Both the position numbers and the translations under genes were made by a program. A stretch of DNA of 34,181 bases from a virus (Duplodnaviria; Caudoviricetes): the IMG/VR virus record IMGVR_UViG_3300008264_000009, positions 1-34,181 of that record. One strand, given 5' to 3'. The notes beneath the pieces were generated by a model that was given only the letters and a program-made list of their open reading frames with translations, had not been told where the DNA came from and made no database searches. The stretch's first letter is position 1, and every line of letters starts with the position of its first letter. Below, piece by piece: positions 2,637-31,706 of the stretch.

Positions 2637-2945
2637 ATGCGCCACATAGCAACACAAAACGGTAAAGAAACTAATTTCCACGATGTTGATGGGAATCACT
2701 TTATCGAGACCAAGCAGGATATTTCTGCGATTCTCGAAAGCAACAAGGCTCAATTCAATGCTATTGATGAACGAGCCAAATGGGGTGAATGGACAAAGAT
2801 TGCCAGCTTGCCTAATGTTGTGATTGATGACTTGAACAGACAAGGAATCATGCGAGGTTTTGCTGTTGTGGATGAGAAAAGATTTCGGACTTTCTTAAAT
2901 AACCCTGATAATCGGTTCTTCAGAACTCGACCAGGACAGATATGA
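2637..2945 (+). CDS. conserved phage hypothetical protein
   Basis: 'KIASLPNVVI' and 'FLNNPDNRFFRT' motifs; coupled to the next gene by ATGA overlap. Confidence 0.75.
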   Translation: MRHIATQNGKETNFHDVDGNHFIETKQDISAILESNKAQFNAIDERAKWGEWTKIASLPNVVIDDLNRQGIMRGFAVVDEKRFRTFLNNPDNRFFRTRPGQI

Positions 2946-3562
2946 AAGTTGCCATTTGCGTACCCTGCCGTGACACAGTTATGACAGGGTTTGCTTTTGA
3001 CCTAGCGAAACTCTGCGCTTATGAAGGCGTGACAAGATGTGCAAAAGGTGGCTCGTTGATGATTTATCAAGTGCCTGGCACTTTGATATTCAACCAGCGT
3101 GAGCGACTTGCGGAAGAAGCACTCAAAGATGGTGCGGATGCGATTCTTTGGATTGACTCAGATATGAGGTTTCCTAAAGATGCGCTTCAGATTCTTCTCT
3201 CCCGTAAGTTACCCATTGTTGGGGTCAATGCGACTACCCGCCGTTTCCCTGTTTTGCCGACCGCTTTGGACTACGACCAAGAAACAAAAGACTTGGTTAA
3301 GGTAACGAGCAAGGACAAGACGGGTCTTGAGCAAGTGTTGGGTTTAGGTTTTGGGATGGTTCTTATCAAAAAAGAAGTGTTCCAGAAAGTCGAAAAGCCT
3401 TGGTTTTGGTTTGAACAAACCGACAAAGGTGGGACAATTGGGGAAGATATTTACTTTTGTGTGAAAGCGTTTGACAAAGGGTTTAAGACTGTTTTAGACC
3501 ACGACCTTTCAAAGCACATCAGGCATATCGGAACTTACGAATATGGTTGGGATGATGTATGA
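2942..3562 (+). CDS. GT-A fold (GT2-like) glycosyltransferase
   Basis: N-terminal 'VAICVP', DxD motif 'LWIDSDM', 'GFGMVLIKKEVF', 'GEDIYFC' and C-terminal 'HIG'. Confidence 0.8.
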   Translation: MKVAICVPCRDTVMTGFAFDLAKLCAYEGVTRCAKGGSLMIYQVPGTLIFNQRERLAEEALKDGADAILWIDSDMRFPKDALQILLSRKLPIVGVNATTRRFPVLPTALDYDQETKDLVKVTSKDKTGLEQVLGLGFGMVLIKKEVFQKVEKPWFWFEQTDKGGTIGEDIYFCVKAFDKGFKTVLDHDLSKHIRHIGTYEYGWDDV

Positions 3563-22053: not shown

Positions 22054-22262
22054 TAGAAATTGAATATGTTTTGACAGTACAAGACACACCGAAAGAAGAA
22101 AACAGTTTACATTGGTACGCATTTAATTATCGTAATGCTTCAACAGAAAATGCTAATGAAATGTTTTTGGCGCTTGAAAACTATGTTAATGAACAGGTTA
22201 AAAAAAGAACTTGTGACGAACTCGGAGTCTGCCAAAAAATAAACTGTGAGGTTTGTTTATGA
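22050..22262 (+). CDS. hypothetical protein
   Basis: GAGGT SD, ATGA coupling, C-terminal Cys cluster; AT-rich. Confidence 0.65.
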   Translation: MIEIEYVLTVQDTPKEENSLHWYAFNYRNASTENANEMFLALENYVNEQVKKRTCDELGVCQKINCEVCL

Positions 22263-22525
22263 GATACGCCGCTAGGGTAGACGCAAACCAAGACCAGATT
22301 GTTTCTGCTTTGAGGGCGGCTGGCGCTTATGTGTGGATTATCGGATTGCCTGTGGATTTGTTGGTTGGATACAACAATAAGACTTTTTTAGTTGAGGTTA
22401 AGACAGATTCAAAGAAAAAACTGACAAAATTACAGACAGAGTTTTTTGAGAAGTGGTGCGGTGGAACTCTCTGCCGCATTGATGGCCCTGAAGCAGCTTT
22501 ACGAATTATTGGAGTGGTCAAGTGA
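22259..22525 (+). CDS. VRR-NUC / PD-(D/E)xK nuclease (resolvase-like)
   Basis: 'AARVDANQ.QIV.ALR..G', 'PVDLLVG', 'LVEVK' and 'LTKLQ..F...W' motifs. Confidence 0.85.
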   Translation: MRYAARVDANQDQIVSALRAAGAYVWIIGLPVDLLVGYNNKTFLVEVKTDSKKKLTKLQTEFFEKWCGGTLCRIDGPEAALRIIGVVK

Positions 22526-22935
22526 GATACGAATTAAGAACACCAGAACAAGCAACATCTCTGATGCAGTCTCTTTGGCCTAAAGTCAAAGAAGCTATCA
22601 AAGGCGGTAAACAGTTATCGCTTGAGATTAAGCCTATCAACAAAAGCCGTGAGCAAGAAGAAAAGTATCACGCAATGATTGGCGAGATAGCAAAGCAAGC
22701 ACAACACTTAGGCGCTAAGTGGATTGCTGAAGATTGGAAACGACTGTTGGTAGACCAATTTTGCAAAGATACAGGATTGACAGGAAGCAAAGTAATTCCA
22801 AATCTTTCTGGTGATGGAATCGTGCAACTTGGCTTTCAAACCCGCAACTTCACAAAAGAACAAGCAAGCGAGTTTGTTGAATGGCTACATTCTTGGGGTG
22901 CAAATAACGGAATCACTTTTACGGAGAAAACATGA
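22522..22935 (+). CDS. ninB: NinB/Orf-family recombination protein
   Basis: 'SREQEEKYHAMIGEIAKQ', 'EDWKRLL' and 'QLGFQTRNFTKEQASEFVEWLHSWGA' motifs. Confidence 0.85.
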   Translation: MRYELRTPEQATSLMQSLWPKVKEAIKGGKQLSLEIKPINKSREQEEKYHAMIGEIAKQAQHLGAKWIAEDWKRLLVDQFCKDTGLTGSKVIPNLSGDGIVQLGFQTRNFTKEQASEFVEWLHSWGANNGITFTEKT

Positions 22936-23039: not shown

Positions 23040-23446
23040 AGTTTGTCACGAAAGTAAATCGCAATACTGGCATGAATCCTATTGCCAGAGCGATTGCCAA
23101 GCAGAAACTCAAAGAATCAATAACAAGCCACAGAATCTCAATATTCCTTTTAGACGATGGTGAAGATGCCTCAAGCGAGATGGTCGCTACTTCCCTTCCC
23201 GTCTATGCAATGATGACTTGTTTAGAAGAACTCAAGCAGACAGACTCAGTTGAATATAGAAAGTTAAAAAGTGCAGGACACATTCTTTTACGATGCTCAG
23301 AATCAGGATTCAAGTGGAAACGAGAGTACACAATCACAATCGACAACGCCCTCGAAATCTGTCAAGAACAATGGACAAGAATCCCACCACAAACCCTCAA
23401 CCGAGCGATTAATGCCCTCACTTCAGCGCCTGTTAAGCAGAACTGA
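23036..23446 (+). CDS. hypothetical protein
   Basis: 136-aa ORF in the coupled operon. Confidence 0.65.
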   Translation: MKFVTKVNRNTGMNPIARAIAKQKLKESITSHRISIFLLDDGEDASSEMVATSLPVYAMMTCLEELKQTDSVEYRKLKSAGHILLRCSESGFKWKREYTITIDNALEICQEQWTRIPPQTLNRAINALTSAPVKQN

Positions 23447-23891
23447 AGAAGATGGAGACTGCCTGATTTGGAAATCCACCCTGAACCACAACGGCTATCC
23501 GACCATTCGGTTTTCGCAAAAGACTTGGAATGTCAGAACAGTTATCGGGATTCACTACGGAAAGTCAAAGCGCAAAGGGGATGTTTACACCACAATCTGC
23601 AAAAACAAACTCTGCTTGGCTGAAGGACACATGAGGGCGGTTAGCCGAAAGGTCTTAGCCGAGAAAATGGACAAGTCTTATGCCTCAAATCCTGTGAGGG
23701 CGGCAAAGATTTCAGAAAGCAGCCGTAAACGGGGCAAATTGAGCGTAGAGAAGGCTAATTTAATTCGGTTAAGCCCTGACACCCAGAAAGCACTTGCAGA
23801 GCGCTATGGGGTCTCTAAACGGGTCGTGTGGGAGATAAAGCGTGGAATTAGGTGGAAAGACTACAAATCTAACTTTTGGGGTGGTTTATGA
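23412..23891 (+). CDS. degenerate HNH-family protein with C-terminal HTH
   Basis: 'GDCLIW......GY', 'CKNKLCLAEGHM' and C-terminal 'KLS...A..IR.....QKALAERYGVSKRVVWEIKRG..W'. Confidence 0.75.
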   Translation: MPSLQRLLSRTEEDGDCLIWKSTLNHNGYPTIRFSQKTWNVRTVIGIHYGKSKRKGDVYTTICKNKLCLAEGHMRAVSRKVLAEKMDKSYASNPVRAAKISESSRKRGKLSVEKANLIRLSPDTQKALAERYGVSKRVVWEIKRGIRWKDYKSNFWGGL

Positions 23892-24112
23892 CAAAAGATG
23901 ACATTATCCGTTTTGCAATTAAATGCAAACTTGTAAACACAAATAATCGTGATGGCATTTACATGGATGCGCTTATAGACTTTGCCAAACTGGTAGCAGA
24001 GCGTGAGCGTGAAGAATGTGCAAGGCTTTGTGAAGAAGAACGAATAAATGCTGTTCATTATTCCGCAACAACTCAATCAAACTGGTTAGCTAGAAAGATA
24101 AGAGCAAAATGA
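23888..24112 (+). CDS. hypothetical protein
   Basis: 'TKDDIIR.A', 'FAKLVAEREREECARLCE' and 'ARKIRA' motifs of a common small phage family. Confidence 0.75.
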   Translation: MTKDDIIRFAIKCKLVNTNNRDGIYMDALIDFAKLVAEREREECARLCEEERINAVHYSATTQSNWLARKIRAK

Positions 24113-24846
24113 TTCATTATCATGGTATGCCAATAACTCCTGCCACAGCCGCCGCCAAAGCCGTTGATGCTGGTCATTCGTTTGTGTCGTTTGCCCATCC
24201 TGACCAACTTTCTATTGCAATTGAACTTTGTCAGTCGTTTGCAATTGATAATGGTGCGTTCTCAGCTTGGAAAAGTGGGAATCCAGTAAAAGATTGGGAT
24301 GCTTTTTACGATTGGGCGCTTAATCTTAAAAAAGTACCATCCTGCGACTTTGCGGTGATTCCTGATGTGATTGACGGAACAGAAGCAGACAATGATGCTT
24401 TGCTTAAAGATTGCCCACTTCCTGAATGGTTTGGCGCACCTGTCTGGCATATGCACGAAAGTTTAGAGCGCTTAGAGCAGTTGGCGAACACTTATGTCAG
24501 GGTTTGCATTGGCAGTTCTGGTGAGTTTGCAACAGTCGGAAGCCAGGCGTGGTGGTCAAGAATAGGGCAAGCCATGAGGATTTTGTGCGATGAGATGGGT
24601 AGACCAATGTGCAAACTTCATGGTTTGAGGATGCTTGACCCTGCTATTTTTACTAAATTGCCATTTGCATCTGCTGACAGCACAAATATTGGTCGAAACA
24701 TAGGAATAGATAACAATTGGAAGGTTGGCAACTATTTGCCGCCAACAAAAGAAATGAGGGCTGCCGTAATGCGCTCAAGAATTGAATCTCACAATGCCCC
24801 TGCTGTTTGGGGTTTCCATCAAGTTGAACAAGGACTTTTACTGTGA
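24109..24846 (+). CDS. TGT/DpdA-fold base-exchange transglycosylase-like protein
   Basis: TIM-barrel motifs in TGT order: 'DNGAFS' (cf. DSGG/AF), 'PDVI', 'PVWH', 'CIGS', 'LHGL' and 'SADST' (nucleophile Asp position). Confidence 0.75.
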   Translation: MIHYHGMPITPATAAAKAVDAGHSFVSFAHPDQLSIAIELCQSFAIDNGAFSAWKSGNPVKDWDAFYDWALNLKKVPSCDFAVIPDVIDGTEADNDALLKDCPLPEWFGAPVWHMHESLERLEQLANTYVRVCIGSSGEFATVGSQAWWSRIGQAMRILCDEMGRPMCKLHGLRMLDPAIFTKLPFASADSTNIGRNIGIDNNWKVGNYLPPTKEMRAAVMRSRIESHNAPAVWGFHQVEQGLLL

Positions 24847-25310
24847 TTTATCCAATTATTTACATTTTTGCATTGGTGGCTGCTAACCTTTTGGTTGCCA
24901 CGATTGGCCCGTGGTTTAGCGTAGTAAATTCTTTTGTTTTGATTGGTTTAGACCTGACGCTTAGAGACAAACTACACGACAAATGGAATGGAAATCCAAT
25001 AAAGATTGGTGGATTGATTGTGATTGCTGGCGCTGTCAGCTACTTGTTAAATCCTGCGTCTGGTCAGATTGCAATTGCTAGTGTGGTTGCTTTTACTTTG
25101 TCAATGGTTGCTGATTCCTTTGTTTACCAAAAACTAAAAGAAAAATCTTGGGAAAAACGCACAACAGGCTCAAACTTGGCTGGAGCTGCTGTGGATTCTT
25201 TGACTTTCCCGACAATCGCTTTTGGTGGTCTGATGCCTGAAATCGTTGCAATGCAATTTGCGTCTAAAGTAATTGGCGGTTTTATTTGGTCTAAGTTGAT
25301 TAAAAAATGA
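24843..25310 (+). CDS. yhhQ: YhhQ/VUT-family preQ0/preQ1 transporter-like membrane protein
   Basis: Polytopic; 'LVAAN', 'LRD.LH', 'IAIAS..AF..S...D..VY..L', 'R...SN..GA.VDS..F..IAF' and 'K' motifs of Vut_1. Confidence 0.85.
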   Translation: MIYPIIYIFALVAANLLVATIGPWFSVVNSFVLIGLDLTLRDKLHDKWNGNPIKIGGLIVIAGAVSYLLNPASGQIAIASVVAFTLSMVADSFVYQKLKEKSWEKRTTGSNLAGAAVDSLTFPTIAFGGLMPEIVAMQFASKVIGGFIWSKLIKK

Positions 25311-25618
25311 TACCTAAGTTCAAATATTTCCGTTCAAAGAAGCATTTAAAGAATGTTGCGTCTTTGGCCTGTCAGCATTGCGGACTAGAAGGCTCAACCC
25401 AAGCGGCTCACTCTAATCGTCTGATACATGGTAAAGGCCGAGGCGTGAAGGCAAGCGATGAGTACACAGCGGCTTTGTGTATCCGATGCCACTTTATCCT
25501 TGACCAAGGTTCAAAACTCACAAAAGAGGAACGGATAGATATGTGGGAAAAAGCCCACAGAAAGACGATTGAGAGATTGATAGAGCTTGATTTGTGGCCT
25601 GATGAGGTTAAAATTTAA
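25307..25618 (+). CDS. DUF968/DUF1364-like Zn-binding putative nuclease
   Basis: 'RSKKHL..V..L.CQHCG', 'AAH', 'GKG.G.K..D' and 'ALC.RCH...D' motifs. Confidence 0.75.
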   Translation: MIPKFKYFRSKKHLKNVASLACQHCGLEGSTQAAHSNRLIHGKGRGVKASDEYTAALCIRCHFILDQGSKLTKEERIDMWEKAHRKTIERLIELDLWPDEVKI

Positions 25619-26468: not shown

Positions 26469-26620
26469 AGGGTCTCTATGCCAACATCGCTGCGAAGCGT
26501 GAGCGTATTGAGAAACAGAAAGCCGCAGGTAAGACACCTGAACGGATGAGAAAGCCTGGCACAAAGGGCGCTCCCACGGCTAAAGCCTTCAAAGAAGCTG
26601 CAAAAACCGCCAAAAAGTGA
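26465..26620 (+). CDS. 51-aa basic protein (absent from ORF track)
   Basis: MKGLYANIAAKRERIEKQKAAGKTPERMRKPGTKGAPTAKAFKEAAKTAKK*; ATGA/GTGA overlaps on both sides. Confidence 0.8.
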   Translation: MKGLYANIAAKRERIEKQKAAGKTPERMRKPGTKGAPTAKAFKEAAKTAKK

Positions 26621-27240
26621 TTTCTAAAAAACTTCACTTTGTCTGGATTGGTGACGAAACCAAGCGCCCAGACCATTGCATAAACACTTGGAAAACCCTC
26701 AATCCTGACTACGAGGTCAAGATTTGGGGGAACGATGCCCTCAGAGGGAATAAGTGGTTCAATGCCAAGCACATTCAAGAAAGCCGAGAACTCTGCGGAG
26801 TGGCTGACTTGATGCGGTACGAAATCCTATATAACGAAGGTGGAATCACGCTAGACGCTGATTCTGTCTGCCTTTCTCCTTTAGAAGATTGGTTACTAAA
26901 GCCTGATGCTTTTGCCCATTGGGAGCAGGAAACCCGTAGACCTGGCCTAATAAATGTCAGCGTAATGGGGTCTGTTCCTGAAAATCCGTTCTTTGGTGAG
27001 TGTATTGAGCGCCTCAGAAAGAAAGAAACCCTAAAAGATAGGGCATGGATTGAGACAGGGCCGATGCACATAACTGAGGTCTATCACGAGACCGAATATC
27101 CCCTGACAATCTACCCTTCCCACTATTTCACCAGAGACCATTTTTCTGGTTACAGGTATGAGGGAAATGGGCATTGTTTCGCTACCCAATTTTGGGGTTC
27201 AACTAGAGGTTATGAAAGGCAAGAAGAATGGAAGATTTAA
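26617..27240 (+). CDS. glycosyltransferase, GT32/OCH1-like (Gly_transf_sug)
   Basis: 'KKLHFVWIG', 'W..LNPDYE..W', 'ADLMRYEILY.EGG..LDAD' and 'TGP' motifs. Confidence 0.88.
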   Translation: MISKKLHFVWIGDETKRPDHCINTWKTLNPDYEVKIWGNDALRGNKWFNAKHIQESRELCGVADLMRYEILYNEGGITLDADSVCLSPLEDWLLKPDAFAHWEQETRRPGLINVSVMGSVPENPFFGECIERLRKKETLKDRAWIETGPMHITEVYHETEYPLTIYPSHYFTRDHFSGYRYEGNGHCFATQFWGSTRGYERQEEWKI

Positions 27241-27860
27241 TTGAAAATCGTGATGGCTGGTGGTGGCCCAAGTCTGATGTTGAGGCTTGGAAGTGGATTC
27301 CTGTTGAGATGCAAGCTATCCCTGATTTGGTTAAATGGGTTCCGCACCGAGGTCTGGTGATTCACGCTGGTGGAAACTGTGGGGTTTGGTCAAAGATTTA
27401 CGCCGAACTTTTTTCCAAGGTGGTGACTTTTGAGCCTGACGATGTTAACTTTGAGTGCTTTAAGCGAAATGTCAGCAATGAGAATGTAGAGATTTACAAA
27501 GCTGGACTCTCTGACAAAGAGGGTTTTTGTAAGATGGTTGAGGGAGATGGCGGGGCTAATGCTGGTGCGCTCCAGATTGAGGAAACCCAAGAGGGTATCC
27601 CGATGATGACCATTGACAGCCTGAATCTAAGTCCTGACCTAATCCAGTTGGATGTGGAAGGCTTTGAGGAAAACGCACTCAGGGGGGCAAGAAATACGAT
27701 TATGCGTAGCCGCCCGATTATCATTATTGAGCAGAAGAAACTAGCCAAAAATGGCATGAATGACGCCGAAATCGCTATAATGATTCAACGAATGGGCTAC
27801 TTTTTCGCTGAGAGAGTGTGGTCTGATAATGTCTTTATCCCTGTTGAGAAACTAGCATGA
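27228..27860 (+). CDS. FkbM-family SAM methyltransferase
   Basis: 'HAGGNCG', 'TFEP...NF', 'TIDSL', 'LIQLDVEGFE..AL.GA..TI....P.IIIE'. Confidence 0.9.
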   Translation: MEDLIENRDGWWWPKSDVEAWKWIPVEMQAIPDLVKWVPHRGLVIHAGGNCGVWSKIYAELFSKVVTFEPDDVNFECFKRNVSNENVEIYKAGLSDKEGFCKMVEGDGGANAGALQIEETQEGIPMMTIDSLNLSPDLIQLDVEGFEENALRGARNTIMRSRPIIIIEQKKLAKNGMNDAEIAIMIQRMGYFFAERVWSDNVFIPVEKLA

Positions 27861-28165: not shown

Positions 28166-29380
28166 ATGGATAGAAAACTAGTGTGGCGCAAAGTCACAGA
28201 TTTGATTCCTTACGCAAGGAATTCACGCACACATTCTGACGAACAAGTTGCTCAGATAGCTGCAAGCATAAAAGAGTTTGGCTGGACTAACCCAATCCTT
28301 ACCGATGGGGATAATGGCATTATTGCTGGCCACGGAAGGTTAGCCGCTGCCAGAAAGTTAGGGCATGAAGAAGTCCCAACGATTGAGTTGGTCGGGCTGA
28401 CAGAAACCCAAAAGAAGGCTTACATCATTGCCGACAACCGCCTGGCGCTTAACGCAGGGTGGGACAATGAAATGCTCACGATTGAGTTGAACGACCTGAT
28501 GGCAGACGGGTTTGCTTTAGAAATCCTTGGATTTGACCCAAAAGAGCTAAACGCCCTGCTTGAGCCTGAAGTGGTGGAAGGCTTGACCGATGAGGATGCC
28601 GTTCCTGATGTTCCTGAAGAACCAAAGACCAAATTGGGGGATATTTACCAACTTGGTAACCACCGCCTGATGTGCGGAGACTCCACAAGCATTGACGCTA
28701 TTGACAAGCTAATGAAAGGCCAAAAGGCCGATTTAGTTTTAACAGACCCACCATATTCAATTGAAACTCAGGGCGGGTTCAAAGGTGAAATAGGCAAAAG
28801 TCTAAGAAAACAAGCAAGTTCAATAGAGTTTATTGCTAATTTTGAGCCAGCAGAGTTCTTAAACACTTTGCCATTAGTGTTTCAATCAAACAAATTCAAC
28901 GCCTATATTTTTTGCAATAAAGATTTGTTGCCAGATTATTTGGTATGGGCAAGAGACAACAAAATATCGTTCAATGTGTTAATTTGGAAAAAGCCCAATG
29001 CCATTCCAATTGGTGACAGTCATAGGCCAGACATTGAATATTTGTTGTTGTTTAGAAAGTCAGCAATCTGGAACAATGGCATAAAAGGCGTAAATTATTC
29101 AAGATGCTTGGAATATGGTCGAGAAAAAGGCTTGCATCCAACAATGAAGCCAGTTGCATTGCTTGAGAATGAAATTTATATTTCCTCAAACACACAAAGC
29201 ATTGTTCTTGATTTCTTTGGTGGAAGTGGCAGCACACTTATTGCTTGCGAGAAAACAAACCGCCATGCTAGACTGATTGAATTAGACCCCAAATACTGCG
29301 ATGTAATCGTCAAGCGTTGGGAAGATTTCACGGGTAAAAAAGCCGAATTGATTACATTTTCGGAGTTAGAAAATGCCTAA
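28166..29380 (+). CDS. ParB-like N-domain fused to N6A/N4C DNA methyltransferase (beta class)
   Basis: 'LIPYARNSRTH', 'IIAGHGRL.AA' and 'ADNRL'; 'TDPPY', 'HPTMKP', 'LDFFGGSGSTLIA' and 'ELDPKY'. Confidence 0.93.
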   Translation: MDRKLVWRKVTDLIPYARNSRTHSDEQVAQIAASIKEFGWTNPILTDGDNGIIAGHGRLAAARKLGHEEVPTIELVGLTETQKKAYIIADNRLALNAGWDNEMLTIELNDLMADGFALEILGFDPKELNALLEPEVVEGLTDEDAVPDVPEEPKTKLGDIYQLGNHRLMCGDSTSIDAIDKLMKGQKADLVLTDPPYSIETQGGFKGEIGKSLRKQASSIEFIANFEPAEFLNTLPLVFQSNKFNAYIFCNKDLLPDYLVWARDNKISFNVLIWKKPNAIPIGDSHRPDIEYLLLFRKSAIWNNGIKGVNYSRCLEYGREKGLHPTMKPVALLENEIYISSNTQSIVLDFFGGSGSTLIACEKTNRHARLIELDPKYCDVIVKRWEDFTGKKAELITFSELENA

Positions 29381-29708
29381 AAAGATGGGGAGACCAGCCC
29401 ATAAGGTCACAGATGCCAACAAAGTGCTATGCCGAACACTCTCGGCAGTTGGAATCCCGCACGAAGATATAGCCATGAAGATAGGGATTAGCGCAGACAC
29501 CTTGGTTAAGCACTACAAAGAGGACTTAGACAACGGCAGGATTGACGCTAACGCCAGCATTGGGCAAACGCTATTCCAACAGGCTAAGAACGGGAACACC
29601 GCAGCGGCAATCTTTTGGTTAAAGACTCGGGCAAGGTGGAAAGAAACCCAAACCCATGAGATTACTGGCGCTGAAGGTGGGGCGATTAAAGTCCAATGGG
29701 CACAATAA
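29373..29708 (+). CDS. terminase small subunit (HTH)
   Basis: 'GRP', HTH 'EDIAMKIGISADTLVKHY' and 'GN..AAIFWLKTR..W'; immediately precedes TerL. Confidence 0.8.
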   Translation: MPKKMGRPAHKVTDANKVLCRTLSAVGIPHEDIAMKIGISADTLVKHYKEDLDNGRIDANASIGQTLFQQAKNGNTAAAIFWLKTRARWKETQTHEITGAEGGAIKVQWAQ

Positions 29709-30950
29709 CCATCCCGTATGCGCCTCGGGAACACCAGTTAAAGGTGCATGAATTACTGGAAAAACAGCGATTTTCGGTCGTTGTGGCTCATAGACGCTTT
29801 GGTAAAACTGTTGCGGCTTTGAACCACATCATTAAATCGGCTATCCTGAACGAAAAGGAAAACCCTAGATATGCTTATATTGCCCCAACCTACGGACAAG
29901 CCAAGCGGGTTGCTTGGGATTATCTTCTCAAATACACAATCCCACTCGGAGCAACCCCAAACATTGCTGAACTACGGATTGACTTCTGGGGAAGGCGAAT
30001 CCAACTCTACGGCTCAGACAATCCAGACAGCTTGCGAGGTCAATACTTTGACGGGTGTTGCCTAGACGAGATTGGCGACCAAAACCCCGTAATCTGGACA
30101 GATATTATCCGACCCGCCTTGTCTGACCGCATGGGGTGGTGTTTGTTTATCGGAACACCGAAGGGACACAATCATTTCAAAGACCTGAGAGACAGGGCAG
30201 AAACAGAGGATGGTTGGGGACTTCTGGAGTTCAAGGCTAGTCAAACAGGCGTGATTGCCCAGACAGAATTAGACGCTGCCAAGTCCGAGATGGGAGAAGA
30301 TAAGTATCTCCAAGAGTTTGAGTGTTCGTTTAACGCCGCCGTAGAGGGGTCTTATTACGGACAGATACTGAACGACCTAGAGACAAAGAATCACATTCAG
30401 GAAATCCCAAGGGATGACCTGTGCCGTACGATTACCGCATGGGATTTGGGTATGGGACTCAACGGCTATCTGGGTGGCGCAAATAGCTGGTTCAGAGATT
30501 CGATTAGTTGACTACTACGAAAACAACGGGGTTGGTCTGGATAAATATGTTTCTTGGTTGCGGGATAACAATTGGGCGAGTGCCGAGCATATCCTTCCCC
30601 ATGATGTGCAGGTCAGGGAATTAGGGTCTGGAAAGAGCCGTTTAGAGGTTCTTCAGGAAGCAGGGTTAAATGTCCGCATCGCCTCAAGGATGAGCGTAGA
30701 TGACGGGATTCAGGCTGTTCGCCGCCTTCTACCGAGGTGTTGGTTCAATGTCCCTGCTGTGAAACAAGGACTTGACTGCCTGAGAAACTACCGCCGAGAG
30801 TTTGACGAAAAGAGAAAAGTCTTTTACGACCGACCTTTGCACGATTGGTCAAGCCACGGCTCTGATGCTTTCCGCTATCTTGCGATTGGACTCGATGAGG
30901 GTTCTTCATGGGGTAAATCTATCAACCAACCACCGAAATGGGTAATCTGA
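29696..30950 (+). CDS. terminase large subunit, interrupted by a frameshift at about 30455
   Basis: Walker A 'HRRFGKT', Walker B 'CCLDE', 'GTPKG' and 'QEFECSF' in frame 1; nuclease domain 'DSTAIW', 'LPHD' and 'SHGSDAFRY' in the next frame. Confidence 0.92.
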
Positions 30951-31144
30951 TGTATTTCTTAAAACAAGGCGATATTGCTGACGCAAAGAAAATAGCCCGA
31001 ATGGAGCAAACCATTCTTGAGCTTGAAAAGCGGATTGAAATGCTTGAAAATGTGGCGAAACCGCTACAATCGGAGCAACGCCCACGGATGGGCAGACCGC
31101 CAAAGGTCAGGGATGAACAAACCACGGAATCGCAAACAAGCTAA
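30950..31144 (+). CDS. small coiled-coil protein
   Basis: TGATG coupling; 'LEKRIEMLE' coil and AT-hook-like 'MGRPPK'. Confidence 0.7.
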   Translation: MYFLKQGDIADAKKIARMEQTILELEKRIEMLENVAKPLQSEQRPRMGRPPKVRDEQTTESQTS

Positions 31145-31706
31145 GCTGCTAGGTTTACAGACTTACTTTACTGGTAAGCCGTGTAAGCGTGGCGGTTTAG
31201 CCGAGCGCAGATTAAATGGTGATTGTTTGTGTGATGCTTGTTTGACTTTTACAAAACTTCTCAAAAGAGATTGGGCTGTTTCAAATAGGCAAAAAAACCA
31301 AGATTGGCGTGATGCAAATCCTGAAAAGATGAAAGCATACAAAGATGCTTGGTCTTTAAGAAACAAAGAAAAAGCAGCCGAAAACATAAAAAAATGGAAG
31401 GCTGCTAACAAACACAAATTGCTTGCTTCTTTTCATAAACGAAGGGCAACAAAAATTAACGCCACTCCAGCTTGGTATGGTGAGCTTGATGCCTTTGTGA
31501 TGCACGAGGCTTATAGGCTTGCACGACTTAGAGAATCAATAACTGGATTAAAATGGCACATAGACCACATGATTCCGTTACAAGCTAAGATAGCCAGCGG
31601 GTTTCATAGTGCTGACAACATACAAGTAATTCCTGAAGCCTTAAATGTAAGCAAGGCTAATAGGATGATGTATACGGAGCGAAACGAATGGCTACAACAC
31701 CTGTAA
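31113..31706 (+). CDS. HNH homing endonuclease
   Basis: 'YFTGKPCKRG' Zn module, 'ATPAW' and 'WHIDHMIPL......G.H...NIQVI....N..K.N'. Confidence 0.88.
   Translation: MNKPRNRKQAKLLGLQTYFTGKPCKRGGLAERRLNGDCLCDACLTFTKLLKRDWAVSNRQKNQDWRDANPEKMKAYKDAWSLRNKEKAAENIKKWKAANKHKLLASFHKRRATKINATPAWYGELDAFVMHEAYRLARLRESITGLKWHIDHMIPLQAKIASGFHSADNIQVIPEALNVSKANRMMYTERNEWLQHL

Follow-up and report, generated by a model that had tools for sequence, protein, structure and literature searches.

A singleton-type phage DpdA gene, its transporter neighbour and an interchangeable partner slot in close relatives

The DNA analysed in this study (hereafter the window) is the whole 34,181-nucleotide stretch of the IMG/VR virus record IMGVR_UViG_3300008264_000009 (Duplodnaviria; Caudoviricetes). 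The record is a whole phage with a completeness of 100% (CheckV). Two overlapping genes on its plus strand raise the question of how a phage may obtain a modified base that it cannot make. The gene at 24109..24846 encodes a singleton-type phage DpdA of 245 amino acids, a guanine transglycosylase with the fold of the tRNA-guanine transglycosylases (TGT) and no zinc subdomain. The gene at 24843..25310 has a GTG start and encodes a mini VUT/YhhQ (QPTR-family) membrane protein of 155 amino acids (phrog_4899), a predicted importer of a deazaguanine precursor. A sequence-only reading of the window had described the pair as a module that imports a deazaguanine and swaps it into DNA or tRNA. The gene pair itself is largely anticipated in print. 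The addition of this analysis is an interchangeable accessory slot beside dpdA, which different partner genes occupy in the relatives of the phage.

The enzyme and its transporter neighbour

The 245-amino-acid protein carries its motifs in the order given by the sequence-only reading, with DNGAFS at position 47, PDVI at 85, PVWH at 111, IGSS at 134, HGLR at 171 and SADST at 188. The lack of a zinc site was confirmed by a C.C..C search: the CxCxxC motif is absent, and cysteines are found at positions 41, 79, 102, 133, 160 and 168. The protein matched PHROG 887, labelled 'queuine tRNA-ribosyltransferase', with an E-value of 3.8e-68. No match was found to Pfam, NCBIfam (TGT models included) or PADLOC models, and none of the 16 window proteins scanned matched the Dpd models of PADLOC. 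No TGT came up when the PDB was searched by sequence, either with the protein or with an 88-sequence profile.

The AF2 model of the enzyme, built from 88 sequences, is a TIM barrel with a pLDDT of 95.7. In the VIA structure comparison, Cap10 ranked first (Z 15.4, root-mean-square deviation 3.9, 230 aligned residues, 11% identity), followed by an archaeal TGT (Z 15.3), a bacterial TGT (Z 14.0) and bacterial DpdA (Z 13.9, root-mean-square deviation 4.3, 217 aligned residues). Chains of the TGT superfamily made up four of the top five rows, and unrelated barrels reached 13.6 (aldolase) and 13.5. The margin of the modelled fold over unrelated barrels is small, and the fold alone would narrowly favour a TGT. 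By itself, Foldseek could not tell TGTs apart from other TIM barrels: a tryptophan synthase alpha chain gave the best E-value and Cap10 the best TM-score (0.65). Together, VIA ranks 1–4, the PHROG 887 match and the published relatives described below agree with the TGT/DpdA identity proposed earlier.

The bacterial DpdA of Salmonella Montevideo (DpdABC system, PDB 7UI4) has the residue set D95, F99, D130, H181, G206-G207, L236 and D256, and it is inactive without D95 or D256 (PMC10164549). The residues D47, F51, D86, H114, G135, L173 and D190 of the window enzyme lie at or just past predicted barrel strands in the same order, and motif order and secondary structure suggest that they are the counterparts of that catalytic set. 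All seven were invariant in six of six aligned proteins, including those of phages 7-11 and MED16, and in 107/107 rows of close relatives. The flanking motifs were likewise invariant in the 107 rows, except for S137, S188, A189 and a few neighbours. The loop at G135 reads GSSG in the window enzyme and MED16, and GCMG in 7-11. The bacterial system shares with the window enzyme the fold, the residue set and a sparse modification ending in dADG (2'-deoxy-7-amido-7-deazaguanosine). It differs in that its DpdA has 413 residues, the zinc site is missing from the window enzyme, and DpdB and DpdC are required there (PMC10164549).

A tblastn search with the enzyme matched 105 phage records, including 7-11, HK106, SfI, SEN1, SPN3UB, BTP1 and PEAT2, and these seven are listed as phages with DpdA only (Hutinet 2019, PMC6884629). 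The identity to the window enzyme was 34% for gp032 of Salmonella phage 7-11 (E 2e-27), 54% for SPN3UB, 48% for SfI, 42% for SEN1 and 39% for gp38 of Pantoea phage MED16 (cluster DpdA/TGT_1, PMC8306585). The 7-11 match is YP_004782407, the accession given as DpdA in the table of Hutinet 2019. These singleton proteins are 34–54% identical to the window enzyme over most of its length, share the DNGAFS, PD, WH, G, HGLR and DS motifs, and stand in genomes without synthesis genes. The window enzyme is thus a member of the group of proteobacterial singleton DpdA proteins that is already in print (Hutinet group 3, gamma-proteobacterial cluster). Singleton DpdA was the largest group of the 2019 survey, with 76 phages (PMC6884629). 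The family is abundant: out of 8,000 candidates scored, 7,720 reached E ≤ 0.001. Four members (P0178, P0186, P0258 and P0266) are about 400–420 amino acids long and are probably fusions to another domain.

The 155-amino-acid protein matched Vut_1 (PF02592) with an E-value of 7.9e-14 and 52.7 bits, above the cut-off of 27.2, and the two reading frames overlap as the sequence-only reading had stated. Its scores fell under the curated YhhQ cut-offs (TIGR00697, 29.8 vs 50.95 bits; NF008406, 27.1 vs 252 bits). The models span 201–221 positions, and the match was confined to the C-terminal half. The protein is hydrophobic over about five stretches, the profile of a multi-pass membrane protein. Relatives numbered 2,203 among 2,409 candidates, and no solved structure was related by sequence. 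YhhQ of E. coli is required for preQ0 and preQ1 salvage and serves tRNA queuosine (PMC5372724). The window protein has the Vut_1 family and the multi-pass hydrophobic profile in common with E. coli YhhQ/QPTR (PMC5372724, PMC11570991) and differs in being shorter and under the curated cut-offs.

The dpdA stop codon and the GTG start of the transporter gene share four bases (GTGA). ATGA overlaps are also found at both flanking junctions (24109 and 25307), so the GTGA overlap alone is little evidence of pairing. The co-occurrence of the enzyme family with yhhQ was clear in other records. A family dpdA was nearby at 22/24 IMG/VR loci fetched with the transporter, and the remaining two loci start at a contig edge. 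The transporter gene lies up- or downstream of dpdA in the cultured phages PEAT2, RCIP0319, Pam5 (with one gene between) and phiLM21. It is also near dpdA by coordinates in AB3P2, Tbat1_6, Opt-79, LHE71 and Phc. The genetic linkage of dpdA and the transporter gene is real, and its evidence is this co-occurrence. A transporter homologue of phage mEp021 (L106:3956-4468) stands among Dam, DUF6378 and cytosine methylase genes, and that genome has no PHROG 887 gene.

Profile searches of the complete genome found no match for QueC, FolE, radical-SAM (QueE), QueF or QueD-like proteins, and four Pfam models matched in control genomes, which supports the earlier claim that preQ0 synthesis genes are absent. 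Precursor from host supply or uptake was already proposed for DpdA-only phages by Hutinet 2019 (PMC6884629). The same paper reports YhhQ in some phages, states that it correlates with no phage group, and gives consecutive dpdA and yhhQ accessions without synthesis genes for phiLM21 (gp25/gp26), Clostridium phage CDKM15 and halophage eHP-6. The two genes are indeed adjacent in Sinorhizobium phage phiLM21, and its transporter shares 34% identity with that of the window. Its DpdA belongs to another subgroup (DSGAF, HGFG) and was not matched by the query, profile A1 or PHROG 887. The import-and-swap idea is therefore plausible, with DNA as the favoured target, and it is not new.

Partner genes beside dpdA

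The genes beside dpdA were surveyed in a close clade of 67–100% identity, since the broader alignment, A1, proved too diverse to search for loci. The census contained 152 loci (the best 80 of at least 599 and the best 80 of at least 536 confirmed matches), which gave 128 distinct dpdA genes. An adjacent partner was present for 124 of them and absent for 4, whereas 7-11 and MED16 have none. The partner was the transporter alone in 61, a QueD-like gene in 26, a QueF-L-like gene with the transporter in 26 and a QueF-L-like gene alone in 11. The transporter thus accompanied 26 of the 37 QueF-L-like genes. The QueD-like gene never occurred with the transporter (0/128, vs 17.7 expected if independent) or with the QueF-L-like gene (0/128, vs 7.5 expected); the Fisher values overstate this exclusion because the relatives are not independent. 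All three partners (Vut_1, QueD/PTPS and QueF-L-like) derive from the deazaguanine pathway. A PAPS-reductase-like gene was considered as a further partner and dropped, as it occurred in 10/101 loci and was usually non-adjacent.

A quick tree was built from 107 full-length de-duplicated proteins after removal of 21–22 rows that were partial or duplicated; many of its forks are weak. The QueD-bearing enzymes fell in at least four places, and three of them lay inside the 12-row group of the window enzyme, with 91–93% identity. The partner type therefore varies between enzymes that are 91–93% identical. The active-site motifs were the same whichever partner adjoins, and only surface or C-terminal positions, which follow the tree, tracked the partner type. 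Two dpdA loci were found on one 14.8-kb viral contig (L057 and L058), one with a QueF-L-like gene and the transporter and the other with the transporter only; the contig may be a chimeric assembly.

The first alternative neighbour, recovered by clustering open reading frames (ORFs) around close relatives, is a QueD/PTPS homologue. It lies directly up- or downstream of dpdA (for example L038:5735-6100 and L012:4672-5004) and occurs there in at least two cysteine-less sequence types. Among 69 loci listed of the 80 fetched with QueD, 56 were within 200 bases of dpdA, and all of these lacked the cysteine of the CxxxHGH motif; the other 13 kept it and were not adjacent to dpdA. All 56 adjacent copies read IHGH or VHGH, not the LxxxHRHxF of DpdL. 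In one exception, an Acidobacteria bin (L331), the QueD adjoining dpdA retains a cysteine. Five QueD-bearing records, four of them at least 90% complete, contained no QueC, FolE or radical-SAM gene, so this arrangement is not a synthesis pathway; DpdL phages, by contrast, encode FolE, QueD and QueE (PMC10516641).

The second alternative neighbour is a protein of 80 amino acids (phrog_37496) with no Pfam or NCBIfam match. Its model (pLDDT 97.0) matched the archaeosine synthase QueF-L in Foldseek (5jyx, E 1.7e-4, TM 0.73), and ranks 1–10 were all QueF-L chains. The protein shares the T-fold and the conserved C-P and H-E motifs with QueF-L (PDB 5JYX). Seven residues past the cysteine, it has Ile at the position of an Asp of QueF-L that we take to be catalytic. 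The reverse search with a QueF-L-like profile found dpdA at 78/80 loci. The gene is coupled to dpdA at L010:4307-4549 and L066:1059-1337, and also in Pseudomonas, Acidovorax, Cupriavidus and Comamonas genomes. It was not found in the window. Neither the QueF-L-like and cysteine-less QueD partners nor the exclusion pattern is described in the literature searched by title and start of abstract, a scope outside which the supplements of Cui 2023 and of the MED16 paper lie.

The wider family was sampled at 80 loci of bacterial genomes (44–80% identity). A QueF-L-like gene was present at 15, the transporter at 8, both at 2 and QueD at 6 (2 of them distant and canonical), and 49 had no partner. Partners are thus near-obligate in the clade of the window, made up of free phage contigs, and facultative outside it. 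The closest isolate matches of the enzyme (67–71%) were from Achromobacter, Variovorax, Acidovorax, Pseudomonas, Comamonas and Acinetobacter, and the closest matches in genome bins were short contigs of taxonomically mixed lake metagenome-assembled genomes (MAGs). Among 50 carrier bacterial genomes, QueC was over the cut-off in 47, truncated in 1 and absent in 2, both MAGs. With QueC in 47/50 carriers, supply of a deazaguanine by the host is feasible. In both QueC-less genomes the transporter adjoins dpdA, which is suggestive only. A Vut_1 match was found in 32/50 carrier genomes, and some of these are prophage copies.

Supply and purpose of the modified base

Modified DNA has been reported for two relatives. 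Virion DNA of 7-11 contained 50 dADG per million nucleotides and dPreQ0 below 6 (PMC6884629), and MED16 DNA contained 354 dADG and 3 dPreQ0 (PMC8306585). After conversion, this corresponds to about 9 dADG per genome in 7-11 and about 33 in MED16. The window enzyme, 7-11 gp032 and MED16 gp38 have both DNGAFS and HGLR. The sequence-only reading had taken N48 and HGLR as possible signs of an unusual base or target; these variants alone point to neither, because 7-11 and MED16 share both and yield the known dADG. The DNA (DpdA) column was empty in 30/30 S. Newport rows seen in the host table of Hutinet 2019 (PMC6884629), which argues against a host Dpd source of the 7-11 dADG and makes it less likely. 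MED16 gives no support to the earlier claim that the mark blocks restriction: with dADG making up 0.13% of G, its DNA was digested by every G-containing enzyme tried apart from the Dam-sensitive ones (PMC8306585).

We consider it fairly probable that the enzyme swaps a few guanines of the phage DNA for a 7-deazaguanine after replication, probably ending as dADG, and that the YhhQ-family protein raises the supply of the base by import. DNA is the favoured target in view of the dADG that two relatives contain in their virion DNA. By analogy with bacterial DpdA, the guanine would be excised by double displacement through a covalent D190 intermediate, with D190 as nucleophile and D47 as acid/base. 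A deazaguanine from the host pool would be inserted sparsely, with dADG as the final form, and the transporter, judged by its family, may top up this pool by import. The other partners would be alternative routes to supply or convert the base. ADG is a QueC intermediate (PMC5372724). It might be inserted directly, or preQ0 might be converted.

The sparse mark would resemble that of an orphan methylase, directed at a particular host system, and would not serve as a blanket shield. A density of 354 marks per million is about one per 5–6-base motif and would be in keeping with defence against a single specific system. Glycosylases attack deazaguanine DNA (bioRxiv 10.1101/2025.10.29.685425), and sparse marking might limit the exposure to them. 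If the mark is motif-specific, it would be the deazaguanine counterpart of orphan methylases.

Several points weigh against this reading. Its weakest link is what the phage would gain from such a sparse mark; MED16 DNA was unprotected in vitro. The dADG of 7-11 and MED16, as reported, is correlative evidence, with no deletion control or sequenced propagation host. Neither phage carries a Vut_1 or a QueF-L-like gene, so a partner is dispensable for dADG. The transporter is short (about 155 amino acids) and scores under the curated YhhQ cut-offs, and YhhQ subfamilies vary in substrate (PMC11570991). The mEp021 transporter without a PHROG 887 gene speaks against a strict link. No partner match was present at 49/80 bacterial loci, several of which were ended by a contig edge. 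The active-site residues were paired by motif order and by strand position and not by a printed superposition. The two QueC-less carriers are MAGs, and the link of prophage to host in them may be a binning error.

The same chemistry could have another main product. 7-Deazaguanine or 7-carboxy-7-deazaguanine (CDG), described in 2023, or another base unreported by the liquid chromatography–tandem mass spectrometry panels of 2019 and 2021 could be inserted more densely with a partner, and dADG would be a by-product; the cysteine-less QueD would act on CDG like DpdL, and from preQ0 the QueF-L-like protein would form G+ or some other product. DpdL is also a QueD paralogue without the catalytic cysteine and a proposed CDG decarboxylase (Cui 2023, PMC10516641). 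The exclusion of the transporter by the cysteine-less QueD (0/128) is expected if the latter uses an intracellular intermediate, the QueF-L-like protein often stands alongside the preQ0-type transporter (26/37), and both relatives with measured DNA are partnerless. We nevertheless regard this explanation as unlikely. The adjacent QueD copies do not have the DpdL motif, and the normal cutting of MED16 DNA shows that it is not densely modified (PMC8306585). A single base supplied in three ways fits better with one active site unchanged across three partners, including enzymes 91–93% identical that carry the cysteine-less QueD. A promiscuous enzyme with partner-specific products is conceivable, because DpdL is likewise a cysteine-less QueD and DpdA2 is promiscuous (PMC10516641). 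The transporter might instead be functionally separate, with another purine or vitamin as substrate or another membrane role, and co-travel in a mobile nin-region cassette while dpdA uses host preQ0 or ADG. The position of the mEp021 homologue between Dam and cytosine methylase genes, the stop-start coupling of the whole operon and the host's own capacity (preQ0 self-made in 47/50 carriers, Vut_1 in 32/50 with some prophage copies) are in line with this. It becomes improbable when set against the transporter adjoining dpdA on either side in the distant PEAT2, RCIP0319, AB3P2 and Pam5, its pairing with a different DpdA subgroup in phiLM21, and its exclusion by the cysteine-less QueD.

A role in counter-defence against host deazaguanine chemistry would have the TGT-fold protein bind or transfer the amido-deazaguanine (NDG) carried by defence proteins, in the manner of Cap10 in type IV CBASS, with the partners draining or diverting CDG or preQ0. 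Cap10 gave the top VIA row and the best Foldseek TM-score, it binds protein-linked 7-amido-7-deazaguanine (bioRxiv 10.1101/2025.04.06.647259), and both T-fold partners look catalytically degenerate and could be sinks or dominant-negative subunits. However, Cap10 is tied with the archaeal TGT at 11% identity, so its rank shows no special kinship, and the family has His at the position of His181 in bacterial DpdA and of Lys154 in Cap10. Cap10 is also found in an operon with a CD-NTase and the QueC-like Cap9, whereas the window has no QueC-family gene and its neighbours are nin-region genes. With dADG in the virion DNA of relatives, we judge this role slightly more improbable still than a separate transporter. 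Least probable is an auxiliary TGT that acts on host tRNA and tunes translation. The fold, the PHROG 887 label and the YhhQ role in E. coli tRNA queuosine salvage (PMC5372724) would agree with it, but the enzyme has no zinc motif, no Pfam TGT match and His, not the TGT-type residue, at the base-binding position; the genome has no tRNA gene, and relatives have modified DNA.

In a bolder and less probable reading, the clade may be a dedicated ADG branch with a plug-in supply slot. The importer, the QueF-L-like protein and the cysteine-less QueD would then be three unrelated deliveries of one base to a single unchanged active site, and the T-fold pair would be undescribed enzymes that convert a host intermediate, for example by hydrating preQ0 to ADG. 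If true, this would account for the so far unexplained dADG in phages with a singleton DpdA, and the T-fold family would gain two new reactions. The inserted base, its source and the reason for it are open questions in both measuring papers (PMC6884629, PMC8306585), and the partner swaps of relatives give a way to ask how phages obtain a base they cannot make. The slot offers three small defined constructs around one enzyme, comparable in E. coli, which makes singleton DpdA chemistry testable. The transporter pair is available in cultured phages (PEAT2, Pam5, LHE71, RCIP0319 and AB3P2).

Genome context

The two genes are housed in a nin-like rightward operon, 3′ of the NinB and HNH genes and 5′ of a DUF968 nuclease gene. 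The endonuclease and NinB genes at 22253..22935 (plus strand) mark this early operon. A second HNH gene at 23271-23891 overlaps an ORF of 136 amino acids. An ORF of 78 amino acids at 23876..24112 (plus strand), to which no function was assigned, is ATGA-coupled to dpdA and lies outside the module. The DUF968/HNH-like nuclease gene at 25307..25618 (plus strand) is ATGA-coupled to the transporter gene, and all three junctions are four-base overlaps. Promoter (11 vs 10.2) and terminator (8 vs 6.6) scans were at chance level, and 0 tRNA genes were found in the 34,181-base genome.

The gene content of the window includes portal, terminase, major head, endolysin and recombination genes. A weak glycosyltransferase-like gene lies at 2942-3562, 3′ of the major head gene. 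Coupled genes for a DXD glycosyltransferase (Gly_transf_sug) and an FkbM methyltransferase were found at 26617-27860, directly 5′ of the packaging genes. The gene at 28166-29380, immediately 5′ of the small terminase gene, encodes a fusion of a ParB-like domain with an N6/N4 DNA methyltransferase. The terminase large subunit at 29696-30950 is split into two frames. In a 99% identical record (L392), it is one continuous frame of 420 codons with two extra bases at this place, and the split in the window may be an assembly error. An Endonuclease VII-like/HNH gene at 31017-31706 has the terminase on one side and the portal on the other.

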